Part shown: positions 9,638 to 26,854 of the stretch, piece by piece
How the letters are laid out: each line of letters opens with the position of its first letter
Numbering within the stretch: position 1 is the stretch's first letter
IMG/VR virus record: IMGVR_UViG_3300027608_000011
Reading direction: 5' to 3' (one strand)
Length of the DNA stretch: 64,000 nucleotides
Origin: a virus
Taxonomy: Duplodnaviria; Heunggongvirae; Uroviricota; Caudoviricetes
Program-made: the position numbers and the translations under genes
Notes under the pieces: generated by a model
Told to the model about the DNA's origin: nothing
Databases searched by the model: none
Seen by the model: the letters and a program-made list of their open reading frames with translations, nothing else

Positions 9638-10864
9638 ATGACAACAGTTTCAGAGCACAAAGCTAAACAAGAATTTCCAAAATGTAATCTACCATGGGAT
9701 AAGATTAGAGACCGTGTTACTAAGGCCCGTGTTAAACTTTTACTCCAACATCCGTTTTTCGGAAATCTTGCAACACGCCTTAAAATTATAGATGCCACTG
9801 ATAGAATTCCTACGGCGGCAGTAGATGGCCGCAATCTGTTTATTAACAGAGACTTTGTACATGCCCTTACAGATGGCGAACTAATGTTTCTTATTGCTCA
9901 TGAAGTAATGCATTGTGTATTTGAGCATATGATCCGTCGAGGCGAGCGTGAACCTCAAGTGTGGAATATGGCCGGAGATTATGTAATTAATCTGATTCTT
10001 GAACGAGATAAAATCGGAGACGTAATCCGCAAGGTTGATATTTTGTTAGATCGAAAGTATGCCGACAAGACTACTGACGAAGTATATAACGATCTAATGG
10101 CTAATGCAGTTACAATTAAAATGCCGTTGGATGTTCACTTGGATATGACTGGCGATGGCAAGGGCGGTGGCGATGCTACTGTAACAGTACTGGGCGGTAA
10201 AAGTCTTACAGAAGAAGAACGTAAGGCTTTGCAAGATGAAATTAAAAATGCAGTCTTGCAAAGTGCCCAGGCCGCTGGCGCTGGTAAAGTGCCTGCCGCA
10301 GTTCAACGCATGATCCAAGAACTTACCCAACCTAAGTTGAACTGGAAAGACTTGTTGCGTATTCAATTGGAAAGTTTAATCCGTAACGATTATTCCTTTA
10401 CTCGTCCTAGTCGCAAGGGCTGGCATACTGGTGCTATTTTGCCAGGTATGTTGCCAGGCGAAGAAGTAGAAGTACACGTTGCCATTGACATGTCAGGAAG
10501 TATTTCAGATCAAATGGCCTTGGAATTCTTATCCGAAGTAAAAGGCATTATGGATAATTATGATGCCTACAATATTCGAGTGTGGTGTTTTGACACAGAA
10601 ATTTACTCGGACCAAACGTTTACCAGTGACGACGGCGATGACATTCGCACATATAAGCCAGTGGGTGGTGGTGGCACTGACTTTATGGCCAATTGGGAAT
10701 ACATGCGTAAGCAAGATATTATGCCAAAACAATTGGTAGTATTTACAGATGGATTTCCATATGGGTCATGGGGCGATAAAGATTACTGTGACACATTGTG
10801 GATTATTAACTCGGGAAGCGACATAACTGCTCCGTTCGGAGTAACGGTGCAGTATGAACATTAA
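9638..10864 (+). CDS. Metallopeptidase-like + VWA domain protein (DUF2201-like), MoxR partner
   Basis: TAAVDG, AHEVMH (HExxH), WNMAGDY.IN; VWA MIDAS DMSGS, GGGT, FTDG. Confidence 0.9.
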   Translation: MTTVSEHKAKQEFPKCNLPWDKIRDRVTKARVKLLLQHPFFGNLATRLKIIDATDRIPTAAVDGRNLFINRDFVHALTDGELMFLIAHEVMHCVFEHMIRRGEREPQVWNMAGDYVINLILERDKIGDVIRKVDILLDRKYADKTTDEVYNDLMANAVTIKMPLDVHLDMTGDGKGGGDATVTVLGGKSLTEEERKALQDEIKNAVLQSAQAAGAGKVPAAVQRMIQELTQPKLNWKDLLRIQLESLIRNDYSFTRPSRKGWHTGAILPGMLPGEEVEVHVAIDMSGSISDQMALEFLSEVKGIMDNYDAYNIRVWCFDTEIYSDQTFTSDDGDDIRTYKPVGGGGTDFMANWEYMRKQDIMPKQLVVFTDGFPYGSWGDKDYCDTLWIINSGSDITAPFGVTVQYEH

Positions 10865-12233: not shown

Positions 12234-12560
12234 ATGGCTATTAGAAAAAAAGACAGGGGATTCGACGACATACTAAGTGATGTTGTTATGAACCACGTAC
12301 CATCAGAGTACATAGAAGAAATCATAGTACATTTAAATAATGGCCAGGCTATTAGGTTTGCTGGAGAAGAAGTATCGCAAATTGATAGTCTTCCGGCGCA
12401 TCTAGAAAACACTGGAATTATTGATTCAAAAGATATGGTAGATGATGTTGAAATCACAATGGATTTGGTTAAACTAAAAAAAGATATGAAGAAGTATGTT
12501 AGCATATTGCTGGCAAAACATTTTGAAAACGGTGGGGACTCAGATGACACTAAGAAGTGA
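12234..12560 (+). CDS. Hypothetical acidic protein
   Basis: ORF in operon upstream of thyX. Confidence 0.7.
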   Translation: MAIRKKDRGFDDILSDVVMNHVPSEYIEEIIVHLNNGQAIRFAGEEVSQIDSLPAHLENTGIIDSKDMVDDVEITMDLVKLKKDMKKYVSILLAKHFENGGDSDDTKK

Positions 12561-13428
12561 AATAAATTTTGAAAACGATTCGAACTATACTCCAATATTG
12601 GATCATGGATTTGTTGGTTTGGTAGATAGTATGGGTAGTGATAGTGCGGTAGTCCAAGCCGCTCGTGTTAGTTACGGTGCAGGAACTAAACAAGTTAACG
12701 ATGATAGAAATCTAATTCGTTATCTTATGCGTCATAAACACACAACTCCATTTGAGATGTGCGAAGTTAAGTTTCATTTAAAGATGCCTATTTTTGTTAT
12801 GAGACAATTGGTTCGACATCGTACTGCCAGTATCAATGAATACTCTGCACGTTATAGTGTAATGACTGACGAGTTTTATATTCCCGAGCTTGAGCAAATT
12901 CAAAAACAAAGTACAACTAACAAGCAAGGGCGAGAAGAATCAGAATGGTTCATTAATGACAAACGTGAAGTACAACATGCCTTCCAACGTAGCTTTCATA
13001 ATGCATACAAAGAATATACAAGTTTGTTAGGCGAGGAAGATAATGGACTTGCACGTGAGCTGGCTAGAAGTGTGCTTCCAGTAGGCGGATACACTGAGCT
13101 CTATTGGAAAGCAAATCTTAAAAACTTTTTGCACATGATTAAACTTCGCAGTGATCCTCATGCCCAGTGGGAGATACAAGAACTGGCAAATGCAATGTAT
13201 AACTTAGTTAAAGACAAGTTTCCTCAAGTGTGCGAGGCCTTTGAAGATTACGAACAAAATGCTGTCACCGCTAGTAGAATGGAAGTAGACTTGCTACAGG
13301 CACTGATTAGTAAAGATAAGTGGAATAATTTGTTAGAAGACCATCGTACGGAAGATGCAATTGCATTAAAGTTCAATATGGGTAAGAGAGAAATACGCGA
13401 GTTTATTGACAAATGGATCAAAGATTAA
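12544..13428 (+). CDS. thyX: Flavin-dependent thymidylate synthase
   Basis: AARVSY, HTTPFE, RHRTASINEYSARY ThyX motif, ELARSVLP, HAQWEI. Confidence 0.97.
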   Translation: MTLRSEINFENDSNYTPILDHGFVGLVDSMGSDSAVVQAARVSYGAGTKQVNDDRNLIRYLMRHKHTTPFEMCEVKFHLKMPIFVMRQLVRHRTASINEYSARYSVMTDEFYIPELEQIQKQSTTNKQGREESEWFINDKREVQHAFQRSFHNAYKEYTSLLGEEDNGLARELARSVLPVGGYTELYWKANLKNFLHMIKLRSDPHAQWEIQELANAMYNLVKDKFPQVCEAFEDYEQNAVTASRMEVDLLQALISKDKWNNLLEDHRTEDAIALKFNMGKREIREFIDKWIKD

Positions 13429-14030
13429 TTGTAACTGACTTATGTCGAAATCAGTCATTTTTATCGCTGTTCAACAAAACCTTAGTAGAAATACAAAAAG
13501 GTAACGACGAATTAAAAGATAATTATGCTAATCTAACTCCGGATGACTTTGCTAGCCTGACCTTTGCAGTTCGTAACGGTCAGGCTTTAGCTTTTAGCGG
13601 CATGGAAATTAGCGCAGAGAAGTGGGGAGCAAACTGTGCCAGGGTTAGTTCAAAATTTTATATACCGCCTGCATTCAGGCATACACATTTACAAAAATTT
13701 GAACCCAGCGACAAATATATTAATAGTACGTATCTTATTCCTAGACAAATAGCAGTAGCGCAAAGCCTGGGTATAGAATGTGTTTTTATAAGTCGAATTG
13801 ATAAACGTAGAAGCTTTGGTAAATTCATTGATTTAGTTAACGCTAACGGAGGATACAATTTTAAAATGTATCCTCATAAACTAGGTGTTTGCGGTCCACT
13901 GCCGCTGGGATATCGTCCAGCAGAATGTTGCCAATGGATTGCTACTATGCCGTTAAAAAAAGATGCTGATACTAAATTTTTAGAATATCTAGAAAACATA
14001 TCATGTGAGGATTGTAATGACTCCAACTAA
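13413..14030 (+). CDS. GNAT-like fold protein
   Basis: AFSG...ARV.SKFYIPPAFRH...QIAVAQSLGIECVFISR resembles GNAT topology. Confidence 0.55.
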   Translation: MDQRLIVTDLCRNQSFLSLFNKTLVEIQKGNDELKDNYANLTPDDFASLTFAVRNGQALAFSGMEISAEKWGANCARVSSKFYIPPAFRHTHLQKFEPSDKYINSTYLIPRQIAVAQSLGIECVFISRIDKRRSFGKFIDLVNANGGYNFKMYPHKLGVCGPLPLGYRPAECCQWIATMPLKKDADTKFLEYLENISCEDCNDSN

Positions 14031-14613
14031 AATAGCTATAACTGGCCATACCAAAGGTATAGGCAAAGAATTGTCCGATTATTACTCTGCACTAGGAATA
14101 GAAGTGCTGGGCTTTAGCAGGACTAACGGATACGATATTAGTAAAGCTGACGCTCAAGAACGTATCATTAATGAAAGTTTAGACTGTGACTTGTTTATAA
14201 ACAGTGCATATTTTAGATACAGTCAGATTGATTTATTACAACGCTGGTACGGACATCATTATAAAAAGCCCAATTTTATGATTGTTAATTTGAGTAGTCT
14301 AGCAGGTGATGCGTCGATGTTTTTAGGTAAAGTATATCCTTATGGATTACATAAGAAAGCACTAGACGATGTTAGTTATCAAATGAATTTATCTGCCGGC
14401 TGTAAGTGCAAAATTATAAATGTAAAACCAGGACATGTTAAAACAGACTTTTTGATGGATACCAATACGTATACGTTTGCACAACTACGACAACCGAGAA
14501 GCATCTTAGACTTAGAAAAACTAATTAAAGTCATTGCATTTACTATAGATATTTCAGATGAGAACAGTTACATAAGTAGTATAACATACAAAGGCGACAC
14601 TAGTACTATATGA
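14017..14613 (+). CDS. Short-chain dehydrogenase/reductase
   Basis: ITGHTKGIG, FINSA, VNLSS, catalytic YGLHK, PGHVKT. Confidence 0.9.
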   Translation: MTPTKIAITGHTKGIGKELSDYYSALGIEVLGFSRTNGYDISKADAQERIINESLDCDLFINSAYFRYSQIDLLQRWYGHHYKKPNFMIVNLSSLAGDASMFLGKVYPYGLHKKALDDVSYQMNLSAGCKCKIINVKPGHVKTDFLMDTNTYTFAQLRQPRSILDLEKLIKVIAFTIDISDENSYISSITYKGDTSTI

Positions 14614-15167
14614 CAACTGATGCGTTAGACGTCCGGAAATTGGATATTAAATATGATGCAGTCCGATTAAAACAAGAATTGGAATTATTGTATCGCCAAT
14701 ACCCATTCCATAAAGATGCTAATCAGATTGCATTAAGTCATAGTGGCAAATTTACCACTATAAAAGAACAAATGTACGATGGCGTGGGAAGTTTGTATGA
14801 TAGAGAAAACGGTGTTGCCAGCGACCTAGAGGAAAATTATACTGTTATCAGTGATTACGTTAAAGGCAGGTATTGGGAAGATGTAATCAAATCTGTACAG
14901 AATGTTAGTTCATTCCCGTTGGGAAGAATTAGATTAATGTTACTAAAACCCAAGACCTGTTATAGTTGGCACAGGGACAGCGATGAAATTAGATATCATA
15001 TCCCAATTGCTACTAATGCTAACTGTTTCATAGGAACAGAACAAGGGCTATATAGGATGGAAGAAGAAGGTAGATTGTATACTTTGATTAGTACTCAATA
15101 TCATACTGCATTGAATGCCAGTTTCAAACCCAGAGTTCATCTTGTGTTCTCTACATACACATCATGA
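14610..15167 (+). CDS. Aspartyl/asparaginyl beta-hydroxylase-like Fe/2OG oxygenase
   Basis: WHRD, RYHIPI.TN, HTALN, RVHLV. Confidence 0.85.
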   Translation: MTTDALDVRKLDIKYDAVRLKQELELLYRQYPFHKDANQIALSHSGKFTTIKEQMYDGVGSLYDRENGVASDLEENYTVISDYVKGRYWEDVIKSVQNVSSFPLGRIRLMLLKPKTCYSWHRDSDEIRYHIPIATNANCFIGTEQGLYRMEEEGRLYTLISTQYHTALNASFKPRVHLVFSTYTS

Positions 15168-15760
15168 TTTATTTTGACCACATTGCCAGTAATTTAAATA
15201 TCAAACCTGCATTTGAAGAATTGATGCGGAATTTAGATTTGTTTGCGCCACATACCAAATATAAAAAAATAGCGCCAGCATTAGAAGAAGTCGAAAGCAT
15301 ACACTTACGTATTCATCCGTCGGGCGATTATACTAGTAGGACCAACGACGAAATATGGGATGCCAAGGACTTAGCTGACCAAGCCGCTATATCAGTTATA
15401 GATAGTAACGCATATAGTAAATTACCTACTGCAAGAAAATTAATAGAACATGCAATGACATTGATTCCTGCAGGTGTTATGGGCAGGGCTTATATTTCTA
15501 GACTATCGCCGGGCGGCAAAATATATCCGCACGTTGATCCAGGAGCATACTTTCACATACACAACAGATATCATATTGTGTTAGATACTAATCCGCAAGT
15601 TGAATTTTTTACTGAAACGGAAAATATAAAGTGCAGGCCCGGCGAACTATGGCGATTTAATAATAGAGCCAAGCATTGGGGAGAAAACAAAGGCTCCACT
15701 GATAGGTATCATATTATATTTGACATTGCTCATCCGGAAAGATTTTATAACTATGATTAA
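15164..15760 (+). CDS. Aspartyl/asparaginyl beta-hydroxylase-like Fe/2OG oxygenase
   Basis: L.PGGKIYPHVD, RYHIVL, WRFNN..KHWGEN, DRYHIIFD. Confidence 0.9.
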   Translation: MIYFDHIASNLNIKPAFEELMRNLDLFAPHTKYKKIAPALEEVESIHLRIHPSGDYTSRTNDEIWDAKDLADQAAISVIDSNAYSKLPTARKLIEHAMTLIPAGVMGRAYISRLSPGGKIYPHVDPGAYFHIHNRYHIVLDTNPQVEFFTETENIKCRPGELWRFNNRAKHWGENKGSTDRYHIIFDIAHPERFYNYD

Positions 15761-16622
15761 TCATACACCAATCCTACCCACTATAGGCAGTACTGTTCAC
15801 GGAACATTTGATGAGTTAATGGCCTTGGATAACACTGAATTAAGGAAATTAATTTATAAAAGAAAAGCTCTGGTGTTTAAGAATATTAATGTAGATGCGG
15901 ATCGCATGGCTGAATTTAGTAAAAAGTTTGGTAGTCCGTGGACCAAAGATATGTATACTAAGCATACTAAAGAAAACTGTTTAGTTGCAAAAAATGATGT
16001 AGCATACACAATGTATGACGACAAAAGTTATCCCAGACTGTATAAAAGTTTAACTTGGCATTGTGATATTGCTAATGAAAAAGGATTAGAACCTTTCCCG
16101 TTCAGATTACTATATTGCTTAGAACTACCTAGTAAGATGACGGGCGGAAGCACTGATGTGGCTGACTTGGGTATTATACGTCGAGAATGGGATAGTAAAG
16201 ATCAGCACAATATTAACTTAGCTAATTTAGATTTCTTATATAATAGTTGGCAAAAGAATTTCACTAATCAGAAATGGTATCCTGCCTTAGACAAGCATCC
16301 ATGGACCGGAGAAGAGTTCGTTCGTTATAATGCATTCGGTACTGACAATGCATGGATATTGCGAACTAAGGTAACACATACTGATGGCAAGGAAGTATGG
16401 CTTGAAAACTCTTTTATGAGAGAGTTAAGCACTAGTCAAATCGAAGCTACACAATTTCTCGAACACACATGGAATGTGGGAGATGTGCTAGTATTCGACA
16501 ACTGGGCTACAATACACAGACGCGGAGATTTGGAGATTTTAGAAGATAGCGTTGGTCGACGAAGTTTTATTCGAATTAGTATCGACCATGAATTTGATAA
16601 GATGCCTCCATATAATAATTAA
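15753..16622 (+). CDS. TauD/TfdA-family Fe/2OG dioxygenase
   Basis: LVFKN, WHCD, GGST..AD, HPWTGE, HTW..GDVLVFDNWATIHRR. Confidence 0.9.
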   Translation: MINHTPILPTIGSTVHGTFDELMALDNTELRKLIYKRKALVFKNINVDADRMAEFSKKFGSPWTKDMYTKHTKENCLVAKNDVAYTMYDDKSYPRLYKSLTWHCDIANEKGLEPFPFRLLYCLELPSKMTGGSTDVADLGIIRREWDSKDQHNINLANLDFLYNSWQKNFTNQKWYPALDKHPWTGEEFVRYNAFGTDNAWILRTKVTHTDGKEVWLENSFMRELSTSQIEATQFLEHTWNVGDVLVFDNWATIHRRGDLEILEDSVGRRSFIRISIDHEFDKMPPYNN

Positions 16623-17554
16623 TGCAATACACACAGAATAACCATTTCCATTGGAGTTATGATGGTACTCCGTTTACTTTACGTACTAACCCTTATAGCA
16701 CATTTAAGATGCATTGGGGTAAGCCGTCTAGACCAGTTATGAACTTTAAAGATGAGTGCATTAAAGTATGTCAGATTTTAGCAGAAACATATCCCAATCA
16801 AAAATTTAATGTACTGTTTAGTGGAGGCATCGACAGCGAAATAGTAATGCAAAGTTTTATATGGGCTGGATTAAAGCGAAGAACAAAAGCAACCATAATC
16901 AGATTCACTGGTGGGTATAATGATCATGACATTGCGTATGCTATAGATTTTTGCAAGTATCATGCAATACCGTATGAGTTAATGGAACTTGATATTGTAG
17001 AATTTTTTAATAGCAAAGAATATATACCGTATGGAATGAAATATCAAAGTATACAATTGGCACAGATACAATGCATCTGGGCACTGGATCGTATACAAGA
17101 CGACATTCCTGTATTGGGCACCGGAGAAGTATTCTTCGAAAAGATTTTTAATTGGAACACCTGGATGGAAGATGTTCCTAGAAAACAATACGACTGGGTT
17201 TACTATGTAAGAGAAAACAATGACCTTAGTGTACCCAAGTACAGCATATTAAACAATCGTCCAGTTATCAGTGAGTTCTTTAGCTACACTCCTGAAATAA
17301 TGAAATCATACGTAAATGATCAAATTGTACAGGACTTATTAAGTAATAAACTAGACGGCAAGTTAAGTATTGCTAGTTCAAAGTTTCGAATCTATTATCA
17401 ATATTTTCTATTAAAATTTAGAAAAAAATATCACGGTTACGAAACATTAAAACTATTAAATTTACAAGCTCAACAAGAAATGTTAAACTATATACCTTAT
17501 AACGATCATAGATTTGAAATGTTAGCAACAGACTTTATTAAGAGCCTTTCATGA
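16622..17554 (+). CDS. PP-loop ATP pyrophosphatase (asparagine synthetase C-domain-like)
   Basis: VLFSGGIDSE motif, LGTGE, RKKYHGYE C-terminal motif; no glutaminase domain. Confidence 0.75.
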   Translation: MQYTQNNHFHWSYDGTPFTLRTNPYSTFKMHWGKPSRPVMNFKDECIKVCQILAETYPNQKFNVLFSGGIDSEIVMQSFIWAGLKRRTKATIIRFTGGYNDHDIAYAIDFCKYHAIPYELMELDIVEFFNSKEYIPYGMKYQSIQLAQIQCIWALDRIQDDIPVLGTGEVFFEKIFNWNTWMEDVPRKQYDWVYYVRENNDLSVPKYSILNNRPVISEFFSYTPEIMKSYVNDQIVQDLLSNKLDGKLSIASSKFRIYYQYFLLKFRKKYHGYETLKLLNLQAQQEMLNYIPYNDHRFEMLATDFIKSLS

Positions 17555-18165
17555 AAATTATTAAATTAGACCTAAGTTATTTTGACCAAATTGACGAAAT
17601 CCAACAGGACTACAATACGTTTGCGGGGGTAGATGTTACGGCAGTTCCTTTTTATAAACAAGATATGATGATGAGTAAGCACAACAATCTTGCTAACTTA
17701 TACTTAGGTAAAGATAATCCCCAATATATGATGTGGGGATATGTTGACGAAGACACAAATATATTGTATTCTGCAATGACACAGTATTTTAGCCCTGAGA
17801 CTAATATGTGGTATATTCAAAAAGCAATTAGTAGAAGAGCACACAAAGTTAAAAGTATAGGTAATAGAAACGGATTAGTTGAAATTATGCAACATGCTAT
17901 TGAATTTGCAGAAAAAAGAAACTGCTTTCAATATATTATGGCATACCCTAAACGCTATTATCTAGCACATAAACGTATATGGCCCAAGTATGTCGAACAA
18001 CGAAAAGAACGATACGACAGCGTAGTTATTAACGTTATTCCGCCCAATACAAGACCCCAATTTATAGATCAATGGATGTGGTTAATGAACAGTGCATTAT
18101 GGCCCACCGAACTAGTTGTAACTATGCAATATCTAAAGCCGGAATTTCGTCAAGAAATTAAATAA
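17551..18165 (+). CDS. GNAT-like protein, paralog of 22184-22849
   Basis: MWGY..., WYI, IMQHAIEFAE, VIPPNTRP motifs shared with the paralog. Confidence 0.55.
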   Translation: MKIIKLDLSYFDQIDEIQQDYNTFAGVDVTAVPFYKQDMMMSKHNNLANLYLGKDNPQYMMWGYVDEDTNILYSAMTQYFSPETNMWYIQKAISRRAHKVKSIGNRNGLVEIMQHAIEFAEKRNCFQYIMAYPKRYYLAHKRIWPKYVEQRKERYDSVVINVIPPNTRPQFIDQWMWLMNSALWPTELVVTMQYLKPEFRQEIK

Positions 18166-18176
18166 TAAATAGTAAT

Positions 18177-18944
18177 ATGAAAACGACCGGACATAGCATT
18201 AAATTATTTTGGCCTGTACATTTGGCCGCCCTAATAGGAACTATTTGTTTGTTCCTGTACGGGGACTTATCTTACCTGTGGCTATGGCCCGTGGGTTGGG
18301 TACTTATCAGCGGCCTTGGCAGTGCAATTGGCTTACATCGTGTTCTTAGTCATAAATGTATTCCAGAAATGAGTTCATTTACAAGAAAAGTACTTACATT
18401 GTTAGGCTGTATGGCTGGACAAGGTAGTCCTATTTTTTGGGTAGCATTACATAGAGGCTACCACCACAATCATGCAGACACATTACGAGACATCCACAGT
18501 CCTATCCATGGCAAATTTCACGCTTATCTGAGTTGGAGTTGGAAAATTACTCCCACTGATGTTAGCTTGAAATATGCAGTAGATTTGCTACGTGATAAAT
18601 TCCAAGTATGGGTACACACAAACTATTATAGAATAGTATGGGGTGTAATATTAGTAACTGCCTTAATCAACTGGCAAGTAGCCGTTGGGCTAATACTAAT
18701 CCCAATGATTACTGGAATACATCAAGAAGCTTGCGTCAATCTATTTTGCCATTGGAATGGTTTAGGTTATAGGAACCATGAAATCAAAGACAATAGTACA
18801 AATGTGCCACTGCTTGGTTATTTTGCGTGGGGTCAAGGATGGCATAACAATCATCACAAACACCCGGGCAATTTTAACTTTGGCGAAAAATGGTGGGAAT
18901 TTGATCCATGCATGATATTCTATCCTATACTTAAACGAATCTAA
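18177..18944 (+). CDS. Membrane fatty acid desaturase (delta-9/OLE1-DesC-like)
   Basis: His boxes HRVLSH, HRGYHHNH, HNNHH; DIHSP; WWEFDP; hydrophobic helices; TAAATA at 18166-18171. Confidence 0.93.
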   Translation: MKTTGHSIKLFWPVHLAALIGTICLFLYGDLSYLWLWPVGWVLISGLGSAIGLHRVLSHKCIPEMSSFTRKVLTLLGCMAGQGSPIFWVALHRGYHHNHADTLRDIHSPIHGKFHAYLSWSWKITPTDVSLKYAVDLLRDKFQVWVHTNYYRIVWGVILVTALINWQVAVGLILIPMITGIHQEACVNLFCHWNGLGYRNHEIKDNSTNVPLLGYFAWGQGWHNNHHKHPGNFNFGEKWWEFDPCMIFYPILKRI

Positions 18945-20491
18945 TGACCTCAGACATTGTAATTTTTACAGAATTTACCAGCACGACAGTATTCCAAAGA
19001 CTACTGGGCGCATATCGAATCGCCACCGAACTACGTAAAAATGGATATACTGTACAAGTAGTAGACTATTTTACTGAATGGAACTTGGACGAATTGAAAC
19101 TAATCGTCGATAAGTTTGTTGGACCAAATACATTATTTGTAGGATTCAGTAGTACACTGTACGCCATCAGAGACGAAGCACTTAGTGATAATAGTAGGCC
19201 CAATCATTATAGAAGAGAATTACGCTATACTGAGGACTTCCCGTTTAAACCAGAAGTAAGTCATGCATTTATTTCCCATATTAGAGAAGTAAACTCTAAC
19301 ACAAAAATAGTATTAGGTGGACAACGTAGTCAATACAAAAACAGTAAACTTGTTGATTGTTTCATTCACGGATACGCCGACCATACTACCGTTGAATATG
19401 CACATTTTTTAGCTGGCAAACCATATGATGCATCTGTACTTAAAATGGTTCCAATTAACGATAAACAAATAGAAGTAGATTGGATTAAAGATCCCGAATG
19501 GAATTTCCAGACTAGTCAAGTATTATGGCAACCTAATGATTTAATTTATGAAAACGAAGTGTTACCTATAGAGATTAGCAGGGGTTGTATTTTTAGATGC
19601 GACTTTTGTAGTTTTCCAATGAATGGTAAAACTAAATTAGATTACATCAAAGATCCAGGCCCATTAAGAGAAGAATTCATACGTAACTATGAGCAATGGG
19701 GTATTACTAATTATATTTTTGCGGATGATACATATAACGATAGCATCTATAAAGTAGAAAAACTTTACAATGAAGTGTTTTCTAAATTGCCATTTAAAAT
19801 ACAGTTTAGTGCTTATTTGAGACACGACTTAATATATCAGAATAGAGACATGGCTCCTCTTTTAAAAGAAAGTGGCTTGAAGACGTGTGTGTTTGGATTA
19901 GAGACTATGAATCACGATAGTGCAAAATCTATCGGTAAAGGTCTTCATCCAGAAAAAGGTAAAGAATTACTGCATTGGCTCAGGGACGATGAATGGGGCA
20001 AAGATATAACAATGAGTAGCGGATTTATTGTTGGGCTACCACATGAGACCGAGGAAACATTTAGAGAATGGATGAAGTGGGTTGAAGATCCGAATTGTCC
20101 ATTAGATGGTTATACAGTAGAGCCCTTGGGATTTAATATTAACGAAAAGAAAATATGGCCCAGCAAATTTGAAGCTGATCCCGAATCATATGGTTATACC
20201 ATTGTTAATAAAGGTGTTGCAAATAACAGTTTCTTTAAATGGAGTCTATGGACCAACAAGCATATGAGTCTGCCTAAGGCATGGGCGCTTGCTGACGAAT
20301 ATATTATGCGAGGATATCGCAGTGGCAGGATCAGGCCTGCTGGTTTTTTCCAATTCATGTGGATGAATGGTACTGGATTAACTGCCGATGATTTAGCAGG
20401 AATGAGTGTTAAAAATGTCAGTGCAACATTTCTTAAAGATAAGAAAGCTGAATGGTTTGACCAATACAAGACACGCCTTTTTAATTTATAA
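18944..20491 (+). CDS. B12-binding radical SAM enzyme
   Basis: N-terminal cobalamin-type domain (GAYRIATELR, VGFSST, IVLGG), SRGCIFRCDFC, DDTYND, GLET, FIVGLPHET. Confidence 0.9.
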   Translation: MTSDIVIFTEFTSTTVFQRLLGAYRIATELRKNGYTVQVVDYFTEWNLDELKLIVDKFVGPNTLFVGFSSTLYAIRDEALSDNSRPNHYRRELRYTEDFPFKPEVSHAFISHIREVNSNTKIVLGGQRSQYKNSKLVDCFIHGYADHTTVEYAHFLAGKPYDASVLKMVPINDKQIEVDWIKDPEWNFQTSQVLWQPNDLIYENEVLPIEISRGCIFRCDFCSFPMNGKTKLDYIKDPGPLREEFIRNYEQWGITNYIFADDTYNDSIYKVEKLYNEVFSKLPFKIQFSAYLRHDLIYQNRDMAPLLKESGLKTCVFGLETMNHDSAKSIGKGLHPEKGKELLHWLRDDEWGKDITMSSGFIVGLPHETEETFREWMKWVEDPNCPLDGYTVEPLGFNINEKKIWPSKFEADPESYGYTIVNKGVANNSFFKWSLWTNKHMSLPKAWALADEYIMRGYRSGRIRPAGFFQFMWMNGTGLTADDLAGMSVKNVSATFLKDKKAEWFDQYKTRLFNL

Positions 20492-20502
20492 GAGAGACAG
20501 AT

Positions 20503-21120
20503 ATGTGGATGCACATTTTAACTACAAGCCTAAATAGGGTATTGTTACACGCCCCCGAGAAGAAACATTTATATTTTATTAATGAATGCTTTTTTGATAC
20601 TCACGTTTATACTGGACAATTAGATAACAGTTTAGAACCTCAGTTCAGGTCTACTCCAACTGATTTTATACTGCAAGGATCTAACATTGTTTTTAGTCCT
20701 GTACCAAATGATGATATTTCCAATCTAAGAAAATTTGCTGAATATAAGCAAATGTGCTATTATGATTTATTAACTAAAATAGGATTAGCTAGAGTCAAGG
20801 AACAAGACAAAGTAACTGGACAGGCTGAAATTTATAAAATGAAATATGATCAAGCATTGTTACTACAACAAAACAATTATGATCCTACAAACATTAATGC
20901 TCCGCTAGTAGTTGATTATGCAGAACTAGACAACTGCACTATTAAACAAAGTGCGGATCAAATTATTTTACAATATACAATGCACCAAGAGTCTCTACAG
21001 AAAACAGAATGGTTTAGAATAAAATATTTAAGGCTAATTAAGCAATCACAAACTGCCGAAGAATTAAAACAAATTGCAAAAGATTTGCATAAAGAAACCT
21101 TTTTAAACATACTCTTATGA
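20503..21120 (+). CDS. Hypothetical protein; helical C-terminus resembles tail-fibre-associated proteins
   Basis: GQAEIYKMKYDQA...PLVVDYAE...TEWFRIKY...IKQSQTAEEL pattern. Confidence 0.5.
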   Translation: MWMHILTTSLNRVLLHAPEKKHLYFINECFFDTHVYTGQLDNSLEPQFRSTPTDFILQGSNIVFSPVPNDDISNLRKFAEYKQMCYYDLLTKIGLARVKEQDKVTGQAEIYKMKYDQALLLQQNNYDPTNINAPLVVDYAELDNCTIKQSADQIILQYTMHQESLQKTEWFRIKYLRLIKQSQTAEELKQIAKDLHKETFLNILL

Positions 21121-22190
21121 AATCACTATTATATTATAATCAATTAGATGTATATAAACCTGAATGGTGTAAAGATGTGCCTGCATTGAAGACCTATAGT
21201 GTGTTTAGTAAAGCATTTAATAGTGGTATTAGTTTAGTTGATAGAACTGGTACTATAAAACTACCGTTCAATGTAGTTAACAGACATCCCATGCCTACTA
21301 AACAAGATATGTCATTAACATTTGAAGAACTATGTTATCAGACATGGGATAAAATAGAACAACATATTAAGCAAACAATGTTGCGTCCTGTTATTATGTA
21401 TAGCGGCGGCATTGACAGTACATTAATAGTTTCATTAATGCATACCTATGCAAGTCCTGAGTTTAAAGAACGACTATTAATTATATTAAACACTAATAGT
21501 ATACAAGAAAATCCAATATTTTACGAAAATATAATTAAACGCAACTATACTATGGCTAGTAGTAATTCATTTGAAAATTATTTTAATGAGTTTAACTATA
21601 TAATTACCGGCGAGTTTGCTGATAACGTATTTGGCAGTTTGACATTAAAATCTAGCATAGACTTTTTTGGCACAGAAAGCATTATTCAAAACAATTACAA
21701 AGTATTTGCTTATGATTTCTTCAATCATAAAATTCAAAATGAAACCGAGACTAAATTCTTCTTAGATCAAATGGAGCAGTTAATTGCTACTTGTCCATGG
21801 AAAATTAAAAGTTGGAGCGACTACTTATGGTATCAAAATTTTGCAATGAAATGGCAAGCAGTTGAATTTAGAATATTGAGTCATAAAAATGCAGACTTAA
21901 CAATTAACGATGATTATATCTCTAAACATATTTGTCATTTTTGGCAAAGTCAGGAATGGCAACAATGGGCCCTAAACAATCCTGAAGATAAAATACAAAA
22001 CAAATGGACTAGTTATAAACTTCCTGCAAAAGAGCTAATCTTTAAACTGACTGGCGACCGGGAATATTTCATACGTAAGACTAAATTTCCTAGCTTGCCC
22101 GGCGTGTTTAGATACAGACGTGTAAGTAATTTCATAACAGACAAATTCGAGTTTGTAAGTGATATAGATATTAAGGAATACCTATGTTAA
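21117..22190 (+). CDS. PP-loop ATP pyrophosphatase (asparagine synthetase C-domain-like)
   Basis: IMYSGGIDST, ITGEFADNVFG (asparagine synthetase GEGAD-like), YKLPAK..I, K.K.PSL; no glutaminase domain. Confidence 0.8.
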   Translation: MKSLLYYNQLDVYKPEWCKDVPALKTYSVFSKAFNSGISLVDRTGTIKLPFNVVNRHPMPTKQDMSLTFEELCYQTWDKIEQHIKQTMLRPVIMYSGGIDSTLIVSLMHTYASPEFKERLLIILNTNSIQENPIFYENIIKRNYTMASSNSFENYFNEFNYIITGEFADNVFGSLTLKSSIDFFGTESIIQNNYKVFAYDFFNHKIQNETETKFFLDQMEQLIATCPWKIKSWSDYLWYQNFAMKWQAVEFRILSHKNADLTINDDYISKHICHFWQSQEWQQWALNNPEDKIQNKWTSYKLPAKELIFKLTGDREYFIRKTKFPSLPGVFRYRRVSNFITDKFEFVSDIDIKEYLC

Positions 22191-22235
22191 CAAACACCGC
22201 AACAAGAATACCTATGTTAACAAACACCGCAACAA
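22176..22235 (+). repeat. Perfect 30-bp tandem duplication spanning a gene junction
   Basis: GAATACCTATGTTAACAAACACCGCAACAA at 22176-22205 and 22206-22235. Confidence 0.97.
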
Positions 22236-22849
22236 AACTAAATGATAGCCATATGGATCAAGTACTCGAAGTATATGAAACACAGACATCTAATATTAGA
22301 GTCAAGCTAACTAAAAACTTAGATATATACTTTAGGAAAGCATTTGAAACTGCCAGTTTAAATAAACTAGGTCATAGTTTATGGGGGCATTTTGACGACA
22401 ATAATACATTAACTATGTTTGCAACAAAGACTAATTGGACTAGTATGCCGTTTTATACCGTGGGCAATGTATTCGCACACAAAGATCGCGGGCATGTTTT
22501 AACCCATGACGGACTAGATGTTATTGGCAGATTTTTACGAGACATCTTTTATGCCGGTATCCAAGAAGAACGATTTACAGCGTTTATGGCTAGAGATTAC
22601 AGAAATGTAATTGCTACTAATAAAGGCATACGTAAACTGCCTACTACTACTCGAAGCGATTTATATTCCCAATCATTGTTAGAAATTGTGCCTCCTTACA
22701 GTAGGGCCAAATACGAATACGGTAGTAACATACTAGGAATACTGGAAGGCAGAAATCCGCATCCTGTTATTATTCGTAGTTTAACCGTTAAATCTAGTGA
22801 AAATACTATAGTTAATACACATTTGGACGCAGAGTTCATTATAAACTAA
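22184..22849 (+). CDS. GNAT-like protein, paralog of 17551-18165
   Basis: KLNDSHMDQV, LWGHFDD, EIVPPYSRA motifs align by eye with the 17551 protein. Confidence 0.55.
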   Translation: MLTNTATRIPMLTNTATKLNDSHMDQVLEVYETQTSNIRVKLTKNLDIYFRKAFETASLNKLGHSLWGHFDDNNTLTMFATKTNWTSMPFYTVGNVFAHKDRGHVLTHDGLDVIGRFLRDIFYAGIQEERFTAFMARDYRNVIATNKGIRKLPTTTRSDLYSQSLLEIVPPYSRAKYEYGSNILGILEGRNPHPVIIRSLTVKSSENTIVNTHLDAEFIIN

Positions 22850-22873
22850 ATATATGCAATACGGAGATATACT

Positions 22874-23182
22874 ATGAGTATAAAAATTATTACTATTTTA
22901 AAGCGTCCATCACCTGAGGTTGAGTTTTTCTTTGCCCAGTATCGAGAGCACGACGTTATGAAGTCAATGAGAAATAATGCAATGGAACACGATGGCTTTC
23001 TTGGTTCTGCTATGGAAATAACTGACGATAAACTTACTTGTACAGTAACCTTAGAATTCACTGACGATAATCAATTGAGAACATTTGTCAATGAAAATGA
23101 AGAGTTCATGATTCAACGTGGTATCTTAATGGACGAATGGTGTCAGAATCCTGGATGTACGTTTGACGTATATATCGGTTAA
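22874..23182 (+). CDS. Small protein, possible dimeric alpha-beta barrel
   Basis: RBS GGAG, TAAATA at 22847-22852; HDGFLGS...TVTLEFTD pattern. Confidence 0.6.
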   Translation: MSIKIITILKRPSPEVEFFFAQYREHDVMKSMRNNAMEHDGFLGSAMEITDDKLTCTVTLEFTDDNQLRTFVNENEEFMIQRGILMDEWCQNPGCTFDVYIG

Positions 23183-23979
23183 CGCTTTTCACCGATAATC
23201 ATATATCTGGACCATTTATTAAATGAGATGCATCCAGAATATTTGATATCAACTCTAGACTCGACCATTTCTTCAAACTGTTTTAGATCACTTACACAAT
23301 TTATGTGATCCGGCATTTCAAACATATTATTATTCTGTAATACCAATCGCTTACCGGTTGGTATCATGTCTAGCCAACGATAGATATTAGGGATATGTTC
23401 ACATATCGTATTGATTATAGTATCTGCGTTACTATAATCTATATCGTAGATATCCTTGTTAATTGCAGTATACTTGATATCTCTGTTTAATATTTCGCCG
23501 GCCTTATTAGCAGTATCGTCAATATCAAAGCTAGTTATATTACTAGTAGAAGAATTATGGTCAAATATTATTCGTCCTATAGTGCCAATCCACCCGCCAC
23601 AGAGATATAATTCTCCAACGTTATATTCTTTTAATTGTACAGCCGCCCATACTTTACTTTGTATTTGAAATCTACTAAGTCCGTCTTTCCAGTTAACTGT
23701 ACTATACGTGTTCATTGCTATCTTAAGATTATCCAAGAATCTAGGCAGTACACACTGAGTTAGCAACAGTAGTTCTATTAATGTTTCTACATCATCTGTT
23801 AATCGATCAAGTCCGGCACTTGTTTTATTTCTAAGAAAATTCGGCACGGTGTCTAGAACTTTATATTGATGTTGTTTACCTGGGTTATGTGCGTAGTCGT
23901 ATATTGCTCTAAATATCTTAGGATGAGTTTGAACCAACACCCATTCATCTAGTCCGTATAGTAAATCTTTAGTTTTCAT
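23179..23979 (-). CDS. Class I SAM-dependent methyltransferase-like protein
   Basis: QIQSKVW, LCGGWIG (motif I), SFDID (motif II), IINTICEH, LQNNN, RYMIIG. Confidence 0.8.
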   Translation of the reverse strand: MKTKDLLYGLDEWVLVQTHPKIFRAIYDYAHNPGKQHQYKVLDTVPNFLRNKTSAGLDRLTDDVETLIELLLLTQCVLPRFLDNLKIAMNTYSTVNWKDGLSRFQIQSKVWAAVQLKEYNVGELYLCGGWIGTIGRIIFDHNSSTSNITSFDIDDTANKAGEILNRDIKYTAINKDIYDIDYSNADTIINTICEHIPNIYRWLDMIPTGKRLVLQNNNMFEMPDHINCVSDLKQFEEMVESRVDIKYSGCISFNKWSRYMIIGEKR

Positions 23980-24097
23980 TTTTAATTTTTATTAGTGTGC
24001 CGCTGACTTCTTGTCTAGGTTTAGGAAAGTATGTCCAATTATGATACAATATTGCAAACATGCAAACGTACACAATAATTTCAACTTTAGTTTTCAT
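23969..24097 (-). CDS. Unannotated 42-aa membrane peptide
   Basis: MKTKVEIIVYVCMFAILYHNWTYFPKPRQEVSGTLIKIKNEN; ATG overlaps the upstream TGA and the stop overlaps the downstream start, filling the gap exactly. Confidence 0.65.
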   Translation of the reverse strand: MKTKVEIIVYVCMFAILYHNWTYFPKPRQEVSGTLIKIKNEN

Positions 24098-26178
24098 TTG
24101 TTTGCAGAATGTGTAATCCACTGCTCATGTAGCCAATCAAAATCGTTTATTAGATTTATATCGTTCGTATTTTGCCTGACCCAGTCTCTTCCAGCTTGTG
24201 CGCCACTAACAGTCCAGTCGCCGTTTTCAACTCCAAGGTTAACAGAACACCAAACTTCTAAACGCTTGTCGGTTTCTTCATCAACTTGATTTTTAATTAA
24301 TTTACTAGATAATTTAGCGGCTTCTCTAAATCCACTTCGCCATGCTGTTTCGGGATCACTGTTAAATTCAGTTGTGCCTATTGTTCTAGGAATTACTGTG
24401 AACTTGGCTCCTATACTAGTAGCTAAGTCTATATTCCATTTAGTTGCGTTTCTCAATAATTCTGTTGGAAATAATTTGACGCCGCCGAAGCCATAACTTA
24501 ATCCATTGACTACATTCTTTACATGCCATACGTATACCACATCTCTATCATGTAACTTGGGATAATTGTCGAATGTAAATCTACCATCTACCACACAATC
24601 TGCATCTACTAGAAAGAACATATTGCTGGATACTACATTGGCGGCGGCTTTATGTGCTTCTAATAAACCTTTTACTCCGTTTATTCTATGTAGCTTGGTC
24701 TTGTTGTGTATTAGCTTATCTAATTTTTTATAATTTTCATCGGCATATGGTTCGTTATTACTTAAAAATACAATATCAAATTCTTCTTCTATACATCCAT
24801 GATCCCATACTTTAACTGCTGTCTTTTGTAATCTGGGCGTTAGTTCTGTTCCGAGCGGAACAAGATAGCATCCAGCCCAGTCGGTTACTCGACCACTCTT
24901 TGGATTTGTCATCATAAACACATGCACTTTATCTTCGTTACCACGGGCTGGCATATATTTTTGATTCCACTTAACGCCTGGACTACAGAATTTATCAAAG
25001 TGCCAATATAGTTTAGTATCTCCTGGGCCCATACTCCAATTATACATATAAGGGCGTATATACCCATGCTCTTTATATTCGGGAGGATTGTCTATAAAAG
25101 ATATCTTAACACCATATCTTTTATCGGTGCCTTCACAATACCATACATGTAAAAACTGTAGTGAATCATAGCTAGGTATAAAACTATCAGTTACCACCGA
25201 CCAGTTGTACAATTGAAAATCTGGATTTATAATTATTTTAGGAACTAGATTTAATTTGACTTGCCCCATATCAATGTCGCCGCGGCAGTCTGCACTTGGA
25301 GTTAATCTAATTGCCCATATTCTTTCTCCGGGGGGTGTATAACTAGAATCTAAATACCAAGTATGTGTTAGCTTCATTGAATCAGCCAATGGCCTGTAGT
25401 CAAAATCAAAATTTTCAAATTTGATATTATCAAATAATGGATTAACCTCCCATGTCATGTCTTTATAAAACTCCTCGGGTATTGCATTTATAGTTCCTTG
25501 CAATACTGATCCGATAAAATTGTTCGGTTCCAATTTGTATGCCCATACATCATAGTTTGGCAAATTGATATCACCAGTTAAATTCCAAACATGACAATAA
25601 TTACCTTGACTGTAATGTAATGTTGCTTGGGGTATGTCTGTGTATAGGCTAGCAGGCAAGGCTGTATTTGTGACTAAATTAAACTGATTTTTTACATTAT
25701 TGTGTACAATTTTAATGCCTTCTGAGTCAGGAACATAAGAAATTCTTACGGCCTCGACAACTTCACCGTCAGTAGTACTGGTATCAAAATGCCAAACATG
25801 GTCATATTTTAAATCATATGTTGGAGGCAATAACGTTAGCATTTCATCTGTCTTGCCGTTATAATAAGGACTACACGATATGGATCTTCGTGGACGCACG
25901 GGGTATTGTATATATGAATCATTCCAGCCCGCCGGTATTAATTTTACTAACCAAAAACTTCTATCTTCCCAGACCCATAAATGCAAATGGCGTTTTTCAT
26001 ATGATACTGGAATAAATTTCCAATCAAAGTTTTCAAATACTTCTGTGTCTTTTATTTCGGCATTAACAAACCATGTCGTTAGGCCATCGGCCATTTTATA
26101 TAACTCTTTGTCAGTATATGGCTTATCAACTAATATTACTTGAAACGTTGTATTCTGTTGTAATTCTATTAAATTCAT
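24094..26178 (-). CDS. Glycosyltransferase (GT-A) with N-terminal HxW repeats
   Basis: C-terminal FDIVFLS.NEP, LVDADC (DxD), YGFGGVKL, AWRSGFRE; six repeats upstream. Confidence 0.75.
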   Translation of the reverse strand: MNLIELQQNTTFQVILVDKPYTDKELYKMADGLTTWFVNAEIKDTEVFENFDWKFIPVSYEKRHLHLWVWEDRSFWLVKLIPAGWNDSYIQYPVRPRRSISCSPYYNGKTDEMLTLLPPTYDLKYDHVWHFDTSTTDGEVVEAVRISYVPDSEGIKIVHNNVKNQFNLVTNTALPASLYTDIPQATLHYSQGNYCHVWNLTGDINLPNYDVWAYKLEPNNFIGSVLQGTINAIPEEFYKDMTWEVNPLFDNIKFENFDFDYRPLADSMKLTHTWYLDSSYTPPGERIWAIRLTPSADCRGDIDMGQVKLNLVPKIIINPDFQLYNWSVVTDSFIPSYDSLQFLHVWYCEGTDKRYGVKISFIDNPPEYKEHGYIRPYMYNWSMGPGDTKLYWHFDKFCSPGVKWNQKYMPARGNEDKVHVFMMTNPKSGRVTDWAGCYLVPLGTELTPRLQKTAVKVWDHGCIEEEFDIVFLSNNEPYADENYKKLDKLIHNKTKLHRINGVKGLLEAHKAAANVVSSNMFFLVDADCVVDGRFTFDNYPKLHDRDVVYVWHVKNVVNGLSYGFGGVKLFPTELLRNATKWNIDLATSIGAKFTVIPRTIGTTEFNSDPETAWRSGFREAAKLSSKLIKNQVDEETDKRLEVWCSVNLGVENGDWTVSGAQAGRDWVRQNTNDINLINDFDWLHEQWITHSANK

Positions 26179-26854
26179 TGTTTATCCAATCGAAGTCATT
26201 GATTAATTTTAATGCTGGTAAGTTGTTTTTATTCTTTAATCCGTATTCTTTGCCTGCTAATGCTCCGCCATACGAATAGAACCCGTACGGCACATTATTG
26301 TTTAATTGACACCATGCATCGAGTCTTTCTAAAGTTATACTATCATCACTAATTATACCACTGGCCAACTTTGTACATTCTCTAAATGCACTACGCCACG
26401 TACTAAACGGATCTGTATTAAATGCAGTTACGTTTGATATTTCGTTTTTGCTTACAAATTCGGCTCCCATACTAGTTGCTAAGTCTACTTTCCATTCGGA
26501 TATAGATAGCAATAAATCCTTGCGATACAATTTTACGCCGCCATAACCATATATTAGATTATTAATGGGATTAATACTATTCCAACAAAATACACATTCA
26601 TTGGATGGAATTCTGCCATATATTAATTCAGTTGGGGTCGGGGTATAATCAAAATTAAAAGTTTCTACTATTTGTGCATCTGCATCTACAATGTAAAAAT
26701 TATTAGTCATACTTTTTCGGGCCGCGGCCTGATGTGCTAGTAATAAACCTTTTACTCCGCTAACTCTCTTTGCATGTGGTGCATACGTTAATAGTAATTT
26801 AAAGTTGTCGTCTGCATATGGTTCTTGGTATGACAGGAATATAACATCAAGCAT
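26126..26854 (-). CDS. Glycosyltransferase (GT-A, GT2-like)
   Basis: DVIFLSYQEP, IVDADA, YGYGGVKL, WRSAFRE. Confidence 0.8.
   Translation of the reverse strand: MLDVIFLSYQEPYADDNFKLLLTYAPHAKRVSGVKGLLLAHQAAARKSMTNNFYIVDADAQIVETFNFDYTPTPTELIYGRIPSNECVFCWNSINPINNLIYGYGGVKLYRKDLLLSISEWKVDLATSMGAEFVSKNEISNVTAFNTDPFSTWRSAFRECTKLASGIISDDSITLERLDAWCQLNNNVPYGFYSYGGALAGKEYGLKNKNNLPALKLINDFDWINNEFNRITTEYNVSSNIS

Follow-up and report, generated by a model that had tools for sequence, protein, structure and literature searches.

A phage-borne cassette of tailoring enzymes with a conserved core in related jumbo phages, possibly acting on fatty-acyl substrates

We analysed a 64,000-nt stretch of viral DNA from the IMG/VR record IMGVR_UViG_3300027608_000011 (the window), in which thirteen consecutive genes, named here g1 to g13 (13413-23182), follow the thymidylate synthase gene thyX. 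A first-pass annotation had described this run as a tailoring cluster that builds a modified acyl or amino-acyl group. We show below that the run is organised around a core of genes kept together among related jumbo phages, and we put at roughly 45% the probability that it forms one branch of a conserved enzyme system, carried by phages and acting on a fatty-acyl substrate in the infected cell.

All 13 open reading frames (ORFs) are present on the + strand. The junctions, from thyX-g1 onward, measure -16, -26, -4, -4, -41, -1, -4, +11, -1, +11, -4, -7 and +24 nt; ten of the 13 overlap or abut, the remaining gaps being 11, 11 and 24 nt, and the description of the run as nearly gap-free was thus borne out. 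It should be noted that the program-made starts of g5 (TTG) and g2 (GTG) are probably placed too far upstream; the first ATGs lie at codon 12 and codon 5, respectively, and would shorten the 41-nt and 26-nt overlaps. When the window was compared with a related locus (L003), dS was saturated and dN was 0.08-0.48 for every ORF, indicating that all of them, including those of unknown family, are real genes kept by purifying selection. Moreover, all 13 genes are collinear in eight close-relative loci (44-90% amino-acid identity).

TAAATA boxes had been noted as well, and they do lie at 18159, 18166 and 22847. As late promoters, however, they did not stand: on the + strand the count of the hexamer is 40, where base composition would predict about 59, so that, being no commoner than chance, the boxes carry no weight and the late-promoter argument fails. 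Sigma-70-like and terminator-like sites were likewise at or below shuffle expectation.

The source of the window is a jumbo myovirus that has not been cultured. In its baseplate wedge protein it shares 36-40% identity with Atu_ph07, SCTP-2 and Rak2/GAP32-like phages, and its PHROG matches comprise a baseplate hub-lysozyme, a virion protein, a DNA ligase, an SbcD-like nuclease and a QueE-like radical SAM protein. The gene for the last (633-1502, +; phrog_2076, E 5e-50) hints at 7-deazaguanine chemistry elsewhere in the phage. The cluster region gave zero nucleotide-level matches to GenBank phages by megablast, and tblastn with g6, g9 and g11 retrieved zero relatives among 50,697 GenBank phage records, while more than 460 viral relatives of g11 were found in IMG/VR. 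Gene neighbourhoods were compared in 91 IMG/VR viral loci, retrieved with the g9 radical SAM and g11 proteins as baits; their ORFs were scanned with iterative hidden Markov models (HMMs) for each cluster protein and then clustered. All these viral loci come from related jumbo phages, and labels such as L003, L010, L011, L021 and L150 designate retrieved contigs carrying relatives. Five of the 13 proteins were without a Pfam, PHROG or NCBIfam family match, the two PP-loop proteins having sub-threshold NCBIfam matches only, and no gene of unknown family in the cluster was matched in PHROGs.

The first part of the core is a trio of genes. g6 (16622-17554, +) encodes a PP-loop ATP pyrophosphatase of an undescribed subfamily, with an SGGIDS motif at residue 67, and opens a conserved g6-g7-desaturase trio found in about 45 loci. 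The profile of its family matches NAD synthetase (3fiu, E 2e-6) and, weakly, ThiI, MnmA, TilS and QueC, in each case over the PP-loop region only. The following gene, g7 (17551-18165, +), encodes a GNAT-fold transferase: its AlphaFold2 (AF2) model, with a mean predicted local distance difference test score (pLDDT) of 84, gave 317 PDB matches at E<=1e-3 in Foldseek, with probability 1.00 to many GNATs, and aligned with VIA at Z 14.7 and a root-mean-square deviation of 2.6 over 153 residues. The canonical Q/RxxGxG/A loop that binds the acyl-CoA pyrophosphate was not evident by eye in g7 or in its family consensus, and one of the 25 members tested from this family matched Autoind_synth (2.7e-4), an acyl-ACP-dependent family.

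The trio is completed by g8 (18177-18944, +), an integral-membrane di-iron desaturase of the stearoyl-CoA desaturase (SCD) type (PF00487, 47.8 bits, cut-off 29.7). All three His boxes are present (HRVLSH at 54, HRGYHH at 92 and HNNHH at 223), and residues 8-248, near full length, align to SCD1 (4zyo) with an E-value of 6e-11. It is the sole cluster protein with segments resembling transmembrane helices.

The second part of the core is a pair. g11 (also designated B; 21117-22190, +) encodes an AsnB-like PP-loop adenylating enzyme of 357 aa, with SGGIDS at residue 96 and a GExADNxFGS motif; the GE..D..FG element, which we take to be of the AsnB type, is typical of carboxylate amidation. The SGGIDS loop is invariant in the family alignments of both g6 and g11, placing both in the PP-loop superfamily, and the two PP-loop labels of the first-pass annotation were confirmed by these motifs and by family profiles matching the PP-loop region of NAD synthetase and LarE. 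Compared with solved PP-loop enzymes such as LarE, the g11 profile matches only a motif region of about 40 residues. g11 itself has no Pfam match; PF00733 is recorded on two of 98 homologues and is faint on one more, and the match of g11 to the NCBIfam model asn_synth_AEB has an E-value of 0.039. No GATase match was found in g11, so it shows no N-terminal Ntn glutamine amidotransferase domain; a search among the relatives for longer, fused forms of g11, which is weak evidence, returned none. Pairwise BLAST gave no match between g6 and g11, and profiles link them over the PP-loop region only.

Directly upstream, g10 (also designated A; 20503-21120, +) encodes a non-enzymatic-looking protein of 205 aa that is the obligate partner of g11. 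In its AF2 model (pLDDT 89) the N terminus forms a small alpha/beta domain and the rest is a long helical one; Foldseek found no PDB match to the model at E<=1e-3. It resembles only viral hypothetical proteins and, weakly, DUF4376/Caudo_TAP.

The comparison of the 91 loci separates these genes from the rest of the run. g10 occurs in 86 loci, always ahead of g11, the desaturase in 48, g7 in 47, an AspH-family hydroxylase in 44, the g6 cluster in 43, the methyltransferase-like gene R1 (described below) in 39, thyX in 34 and a glycosyltransferase (GT)-like family in 33. The conserved core consists of g1 or its counterpart c9, g6, g7, g8, g10-g11 and one AspH gene; g2, g4, g5, g9, g12 and g13 are lineage-specific or patchy add-ons. 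Within the core, two sub-modules, [c9/g1]-[g6]-[g7]-[g8] and [g10]-[g11], remain intact through many rearrangements. In at least eight architectures the flanks differ but g6-g7-g8 and g10-g11 are retained, at a g11 identity to the window of 28-38%, and the sub-modules are variously adjacent, inverted around thyX or parted by other tailoring genes. In L010 the module lies between terminase and tail-sheath genes, and in L021 the GT-like genes, R1, a short-chain dehydrogenase/reductase (SDR), AspH, c9, g6, g7, the desaturase, g10 and g11 all stand on one strand. The idea of one thirteen-gene cluster thus holds for the core, which is co-inherited, but not for a single fixed block, as six genes are accessory. 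Gene-neighbourhood analysis had been proposed as a check, with independent shuffling among relatives as the outcome that would speak against the cluster; such shuffling is seen for the accessory genes, but not for the core.

The g10-g11 pair often stands alone or is duplicated. In the genus of the window, a second pair lies about 60-70 kb from the main cluster (L043 and L050; also L153); its operon also encodes, upstream of the pair, a tandem methyltransferase of 489 aa and an alpha/beta hydrolase, and the surrounding genes are non-structural. The window's own genome probably has such a second pair outside these 64 kb.

Relatives also add enzymes to the set: a di-iron FA_hydroxylase (25 loci), an HxD...H protein termed c21 (19 loci), cupins, a Rieske oxygenase and SPASM radical SAM enzymes. 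Acyl-carrier proteins (ACPs) occur in five of the 91 loci, at two independent positions, and a thioesterase in two. L150 and L021 encode, beside TauD, a PP-binding protein carrying the motif LGLDSL, with a 4HBT thioesterase nearby, and in L011 (3142-3360, +), L012 and L073 a 72-aa ACP with a GLDSL motif lies directly upstream of a g6-like gene; all 42 PDB matches of this 72-aa protein are ACPs. In L011, a phage contig of 348 kb, genes for NifU, rubrerythrin and rubredoxin just before the ACP are a possible electron or iron supply for the desaturase. In the window, no ACP was found by motif or by an HMM built from the phage ACPs.

Parts of the set extend beyond contigs of evident phage origin. 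g10-g11 pairs occur in contigs binned to the candidate phyla radiation (CPR; Kaiserbacteria, Saccharibacteria, Nomurabacteria and Moraniibacteria) and to Bdellovibrionales (L092-L104, L135, L145), and g11-like genes adjoin a Cupin_2 protein in Bacteroidota, Sulfidibacter and others. On a Bdellovibrio-type contig of 50 kb there are two genes for GT2 enzymes, one for a desaturase, a B12 radical SAM gene resembling g9, AspH, an SDR, an AMP-binding ligase and two g11-like genes, as well as a second desaturase-radical SAM pair; the adjacency of g8 and g9 is thus repeated there, and no virion genes are visible in a 21-kb section of this contig. On a further contig, of 298 kb (L152), g10-g11 pairs occur alongside CapK-type AMP-binding enzymes, a cupin and methyltransferases.

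The genes between thyX and g6 contain both core and accessory members. g1 (13413-14030, +) belongs by profile match to the conserved c9 family (hhalign probability 95.7% over 170 columns between the two families), and in most relatives the c9 protein directly precedes the g6-like gene. No match to g1 was found in Pfam, PHROGs or NCBIfam. By hhalign, its probability of relationship with the g7 family is 0.1%, and that of the c9 family with a Pfam-positive GNAT occupying the same slot is 9%; a weak GNAT lead comes from an Atlas cluster with Acetyltransf_1 on 20% of its members, and g1 is possibly an acyl-transfer type protein.

g2 (14005-14613, +) is a short classical SDR and a lineage-specific accessory, present in eight loci plus L021; it matches adh_short (32.7 bits) over its C-terminal half only and shows the motifs TGxxxGIG and YxxxK. 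Two Fe/2-oxoglutarate (2OG) hydroxylases of the AspH/LpxO family follow. g3 (14610-15167, +; PF05118, 32.8 bits) belongs to an AspH cluster that recurs in 32 loci, usually adjoining the methyltransferase-like gene, and g4 (15164-15760, +; PF05118, 66 bits) is an accessory found in 19 loci. Neither belongs to the LpxO equivalog, g4 scoring 26.4 bits against a cut-off of 500 and g3 giving no match. A third AspH-like gene lies at 49407-50111 (-), about 26 kb from the cluster, and scores 115 bits with the HMM of the cluster AspH. g5 (15720-16622, +; PF02668, 89.7 bits) is a TauD/TfdA-family Fe/2OG dioxygenase, accessory (10 loci), whose best PDB match is the TfdA-like 5j92.

Three accessory genes remain. 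g9 (18944-20491, +; PF04055, 56.9 bits) encodes a radical SAM protein of class-B (B12)-like type, present in 17 loci, with the cluster motif CIFRCDFC (CxxxCxxC) at 215. Its best NCBIfam matches, PhpK, rSAM_ladder_B12 and HpnJ, are all class-B families and all lie far below their cut-offs; a match to a RiPP C-methyltransferase reached 26.9 bits. Pfam found no B12-binding domain (PF02310) in g9, and this domain is weak in the Bdellovibrio-type homologue. g12 (22184-22849, +; 11 loci) is a second GNAT-like protein by profile kinship, the HMMs of g7 and g12 cross-matching at 168-221 bits; pairwise BLAST among g1, g7 and g12 gave no match. g13 (22874-23182, +; 11 loci) encodes a protein of 102 aa with no family match that is kept in close relatives (dN 0.30 with saturated dS). 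A 91-aa protein of L150 was considered as its counterpart and rejected, the two proteins being unrelated.

Taken against Pfam gathering scores, the earlier labels for thyX upstream, the SDR, the two AspH proteins, TauD, the desaturase and the radical SAM protein all stand. Others stand in part: the three GNAT-like assignments hold for g7 by its fold and for g12 only through its kinship to the g7 profile, with only weak leads for g1, and the B12 radical SAM is a radical SAM protein by Pfam, which finds no B12 domain in it, its class-B character resting on sub-threshold NCBIfam matches and on the weak B12-binding match of a homologue.

The system does not end with g13. R1 (23179-23979, -), a class-I methyltransferase-like gene with the family motifs GGWVG, DID and EH and weak methyltransferase matches in a PDB profile search, accompanies the module in 39 loci, usually adjoining the AspH gene; the system thus reaches past 23182 to R1. 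Beyond it lie three paralogous GT-A/GT2-like genes (24094-27837, -) with an invariant D56-A57-D58. Four of 25 members of their family match Glycos_transf_2 (best E 1e-4); the copies in the window have no Pfam match, and a profile of the family matched no PDB sequence. These paralogues are probably members of the same system. A link between the cluster and this neighbouring operon had been proposed, and it gains from the recurrence of the GT-like family in 33 loci and of the methyltransferase-like gene in 39, as well as from L021, where the GT-like genes and R1 are on the strand of the module.

At the other end, thyX (12496-13428, +) encodes a canonical flavin-dependent thymidylate synthase (Thy1, 197.7 bits), has a 16-nt overlap with g1 and shows linkage to the module in 34 loci; it is probably a syntenic neighbour and not a pathway member. 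Further upstream, a MoxR-type AAA ATPase gene (8450-9529, +) is followed by a gene that PHROGs label as an HNH endonuclease (9638-10864, +), whose homologues in L150 and L151 carry DUF2201_N/DUF2201 instead; in about 26 loci this pair is conserved ahead of the module. Between the GT-like genes and a 3208-aa ORF (33671-43297), the product of 31924-32979 (-) has weak matches to Peptidase_G2 (an intramolecular chaperone autoproteolytic domain) and Phage_cement, and is probably a structural protein of the fibre or spike type.

These findings support the first-pass view of a co-inherited, multi-enzyme tailoring system that combines adenylation and amide formation, acyl transfer, desaturation, hydroxylation and radical-SAM chemistry and contains no non-ribosomal peptide synthetase (NRPS) or polyketide synthase. 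Given that the sole membrane enzyme is an SCD-type acyl desaturase, that relatives add ACPs, a thioesterase, an alpha/beta hydrolase, AMP-binding ligases and an FA_hydroxylase, and that the adenylating enzymes are of the carboxylate-to-amide kind (SGGIDS and GExADNxFGS in g11), we favour a fatty-acyl substrate, at the probability given above. The weak LpxO match of g4 and the Autoind_synth match within the g7 family agree with this. In such a pathway, g8 would desaturate an acyl chain carried on host ACP or CoA in this phage, and on a phage-encoded ACP in some relatives. The GNAT-fold proteins would pass the acyl group to an amine, and g6 and g11 would adenylate carboxylates and convert them into amides, as asparagine-synthetase-type enzymes do; because neither carries a glutaminase domain, we propose ammonia or another amine as the nitrogen source. 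The hydroxylases, the SDR, the radical SAM protein and the methyltransferase could then decorate the chain or the head group, and the GT-like enzymes may add a sugar. The predicted product would be an amide-linked, unsaturated and hydroxylated lipid of aminolipid or glycolipid type, which would either remodel the host envelope or be released.

Taken singly, each link in this argument is weak, and several observations weigh against a fatty-acyl substrate. No enzyme of the window falls within a lipid-specific equivalog (26 bits against a cut-off of 500 for LpxO and 45 against 400 for ScoE), and no acyltransferase of OlsB/OlsA type, acyl-ACP ligase (AAL) or ACP was found in it. Even among the relatives, ACPs and thioesterases are confined to the five and two loci mentioned above. 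The fold of g7 is closest to small-molecule and protein N-acetyltransferases, and the Autoind_synth match is that of a single member of its family. PP-loop enzymes act on nucleotides and tRNA too, and other readings are compatible with the thyX linkage (34 loci) and with the position next to tail and GT-like genes. In addition, since the viral loci were retrieved with g11 as bait and belong to related jumbo phages, co-occurrence partly reflects shared ancestry and sampling.

The alternative that survives best, although we consider it unlikely, is decoration of the virion, in which a modified acyl or amino-acyl group would be put, together with the products of the GT-like operon, on tail, fibre or capsid proteins or on their glycans. 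The cluster converges on GT2-like and methyltransferase-like genes directly after tail genes, the module of L010 sits between terminase and tail sheath, and g10 weakly resembles DUF4376/tail-fibre-assembly-chaperone-like viral proteins (TM-score 0.4-0.5); moreover, AspH enzymes hydroxylate Asp and Asn residues of proteins in eukaryotes. A membrane desaturase, an FA_hydroxylase, ACPs and a thioesterase are, however, not expected for the decoration of proteins or glycans, and the late-promoter argument fails. We place a fatty-acyl substrate ahead of a virion target because the Bdellovibrio-type contig, which holds much of the set, shows no virion genes over the 21-kb section mentioned above, and because stand-alone g10-g11 pairs, including the second one of the window's genus, sit among non-structural genes. 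Virion proteins or glycans, the target preferred in the first-pass annotation, are thus not supported by the desaturase, the ACPs, the non-viral occurrence or the surroundings of the g10-g11 pairs.

Somewhat less likely still is a loose island of independent auxiliary metabolic genes, adjacent by shared ancestry and without a common product. Six of the 13 genes are lineage-restricted or patchy, the accessory oxygenases are reshuffled between lineages, and all the viral loci are from related jumbo phages, as would be expected of such an island. Nevertheless, g6-g7-g8 and g10-g11 keep their adjacency and order at 28-38% identity, even where inversions or insertions have occurred or the genes have moved to other regions of the genome. 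Pieces of the set also turn up in contigs of bacterial type, and translational coupling extends over the whole cluster.

Hypermodification of nucleotides, DNA or tRNA, which we regard as improbable, would have the PP-loop enzymes adenylate a base carbonyl or carboxyl group, as TilS, QueC and GMP synthase do, and the GNATs, oxygenases, methyltransferase and GTs elaborate the base. It draws on the linkage of thyX, which in the commonest architecture points the same way as the trio, on the QueE-like radical SAM protein encoded in the window, and on the weak matches of the g6 profile to ThiI, MnmA, TilS and QueC. Yet these matches span the shared PP-loop motif only, thyX is canonical, and base modification offers no role for a membrane desaturase, an FA_hydroxylase, an ACP or a thioesterase. 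The GE..D..FG motif of g11, presumably of the AsnB type, also points to carboxylate amidation instead. Least probable is a lasso-like pathway for a ribosomally synthesised and post-translationally modified peptide (RiPP), in which an AsnB-like cyclase, B12 radical SAM methylation and Asp/Asn hydroxylation would act on a small precursor: lasso cyclases are AsnB homologues, B12 radical SAM and Fe/2OG enzymes tailor RiPPs and g9 does match a RiPP C-methyltransferase at 26.9 bits, but clustering of ORFs of at least 40 aa found no conserved precursor-like small ORF, leader protease or RiPP recognition element with the core, g10 is a folded protein of 205 aa, the radical SAM gene is accessory, and the desaturase and ACP do not fit.

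Returning to the fatty-acyl pathway, a bolder form of it is that jumbo phages and some Bdellovibrio-like or CPR-associated genomes encode a self-contained route to a new class of amide-linked lipids, with g6, alongside a GNAT and a desaturase, and g11, together with g10, as head-group amide synthetases; we regard this form as doubtful and clearly less probable than the general one. If it were true, it would offer a gene-level candidate for ATP-dependent aminolipid amidation, for example cerilipin taurine transfer, and would mean that phages make new envelope lipids during infection. Should the general reading hold, these large phages would carry a portable and modular pathway that makes or re-tailors fatty amides in the infected cell. 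It would take auxiliary metabolism in phages beyond isolated lipid genes to an entire pathway, would offer candidate enzymes for ATP-dependent amidation of aminolipid head groups, and would provide biochemists with small tailoring enzymes that have evolved together. Four or more of the protein families involved carry no annotation: g10, c9/g1 and the PP-loop subfamilies of g6 and g11. Since the cassette is abundant in IMG/VR (more than 460 g11 relatives) yet absent from the cultured phage genomes searched, its product would be a blind spot.

In the literature, we found no description of a phage cassette of such composition; individual elements do recall known systems. With the AsnB-type amide synthetases (AsnB, beta-lactam synthetase, lasso cyclases and the amidotransferases that form uronamide or acetamidino groups), g11 shares the SGGxDS loop and a motif of the GE..D..FG type, and judging from these motifs it would be expected to form an acyl-adenylate and then an amide. 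It differs from them in its length of about 357 aa without an N-terminal glutaminase and in its helical partner g10, which has no counterpart there. Cyanophages, for their part, carry membrane acyl (lipid) desaturases as auxiliary genes; the desaturase described here, in contrast, lies within a conserved multi-enzyme cassette and is not stand-alone.

Membrane desaturases that depend on an ACP are known from JamABC-type cassettes (10.1101/291195). With JamA as acyl-ACP ligase, JamB as desaturase/acetylenase and JamC as ACP in those cassettes, the likeness lies in the combination of a membrane enzyme of the FA_desaturase family with an adenylating enzyme, to which L011 adds an ACP upstream. The differences are that the adenylating enzyme here is of the PP-loop and not of the ANL ligase type, that the window is without an ACP, that the desaturase aligns with delta-9 SCD, and that the GNAT, AspH and g10-g11 genes are extra.

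The isonitrile lipopeptide pathway (ScoA-E) comprises a ScoE-type oxidase, an Rv0098-type thioesterase, an acyl-ACP ligase, an ACP and an NRPS (10.1101/121228). This analogy was raised by a ScoE match of g5 and by the ACP and thioesterase beside TauD in L150, and we rejected it because the best solved relative of g5 is TfdA-like, the ScoE matches being weak and partial (45 bits, cut-off 400), and because the L150 thioesterase is a generic 4HBT protein. Neither an NRPS nor an AAL of that pathway was found.

Ornithine lipids are modified by LpxO-type hydroxylases (OlsC/OlsD), by the di-iron enzyme OlsE, by the methyltransferase OlsG and by an ATP-dependent amidation of the head group, such as the taurine transfer of cerilipin, for which a gene has yet to be identified (PMC12971839). 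No match to OlsB (Acetyltransf_5), OlsA/PlsC or OlsF was found in any cluster protein or in 25 members of the g7/g12 families, and given the absence of OlsB and OlsA the cassette is not a member of the ornithine-lipid pathway, which in turn has no counterpart to the two PP-loop enzymes, g10, c9/g1, the SCD-type desaturase or the GT-like genes. What the two have in common is a GNAT-fold candidate for acyl transfer, LpxO-type hydroxylases, a methyltransferase-like gene and ATP-using carboxylate-amide chemistry, to which the relatives add a di-iron FA_hydroxylase in 25 loci. The modification of ornithine lipids is the closest functional analogy to the cassette.

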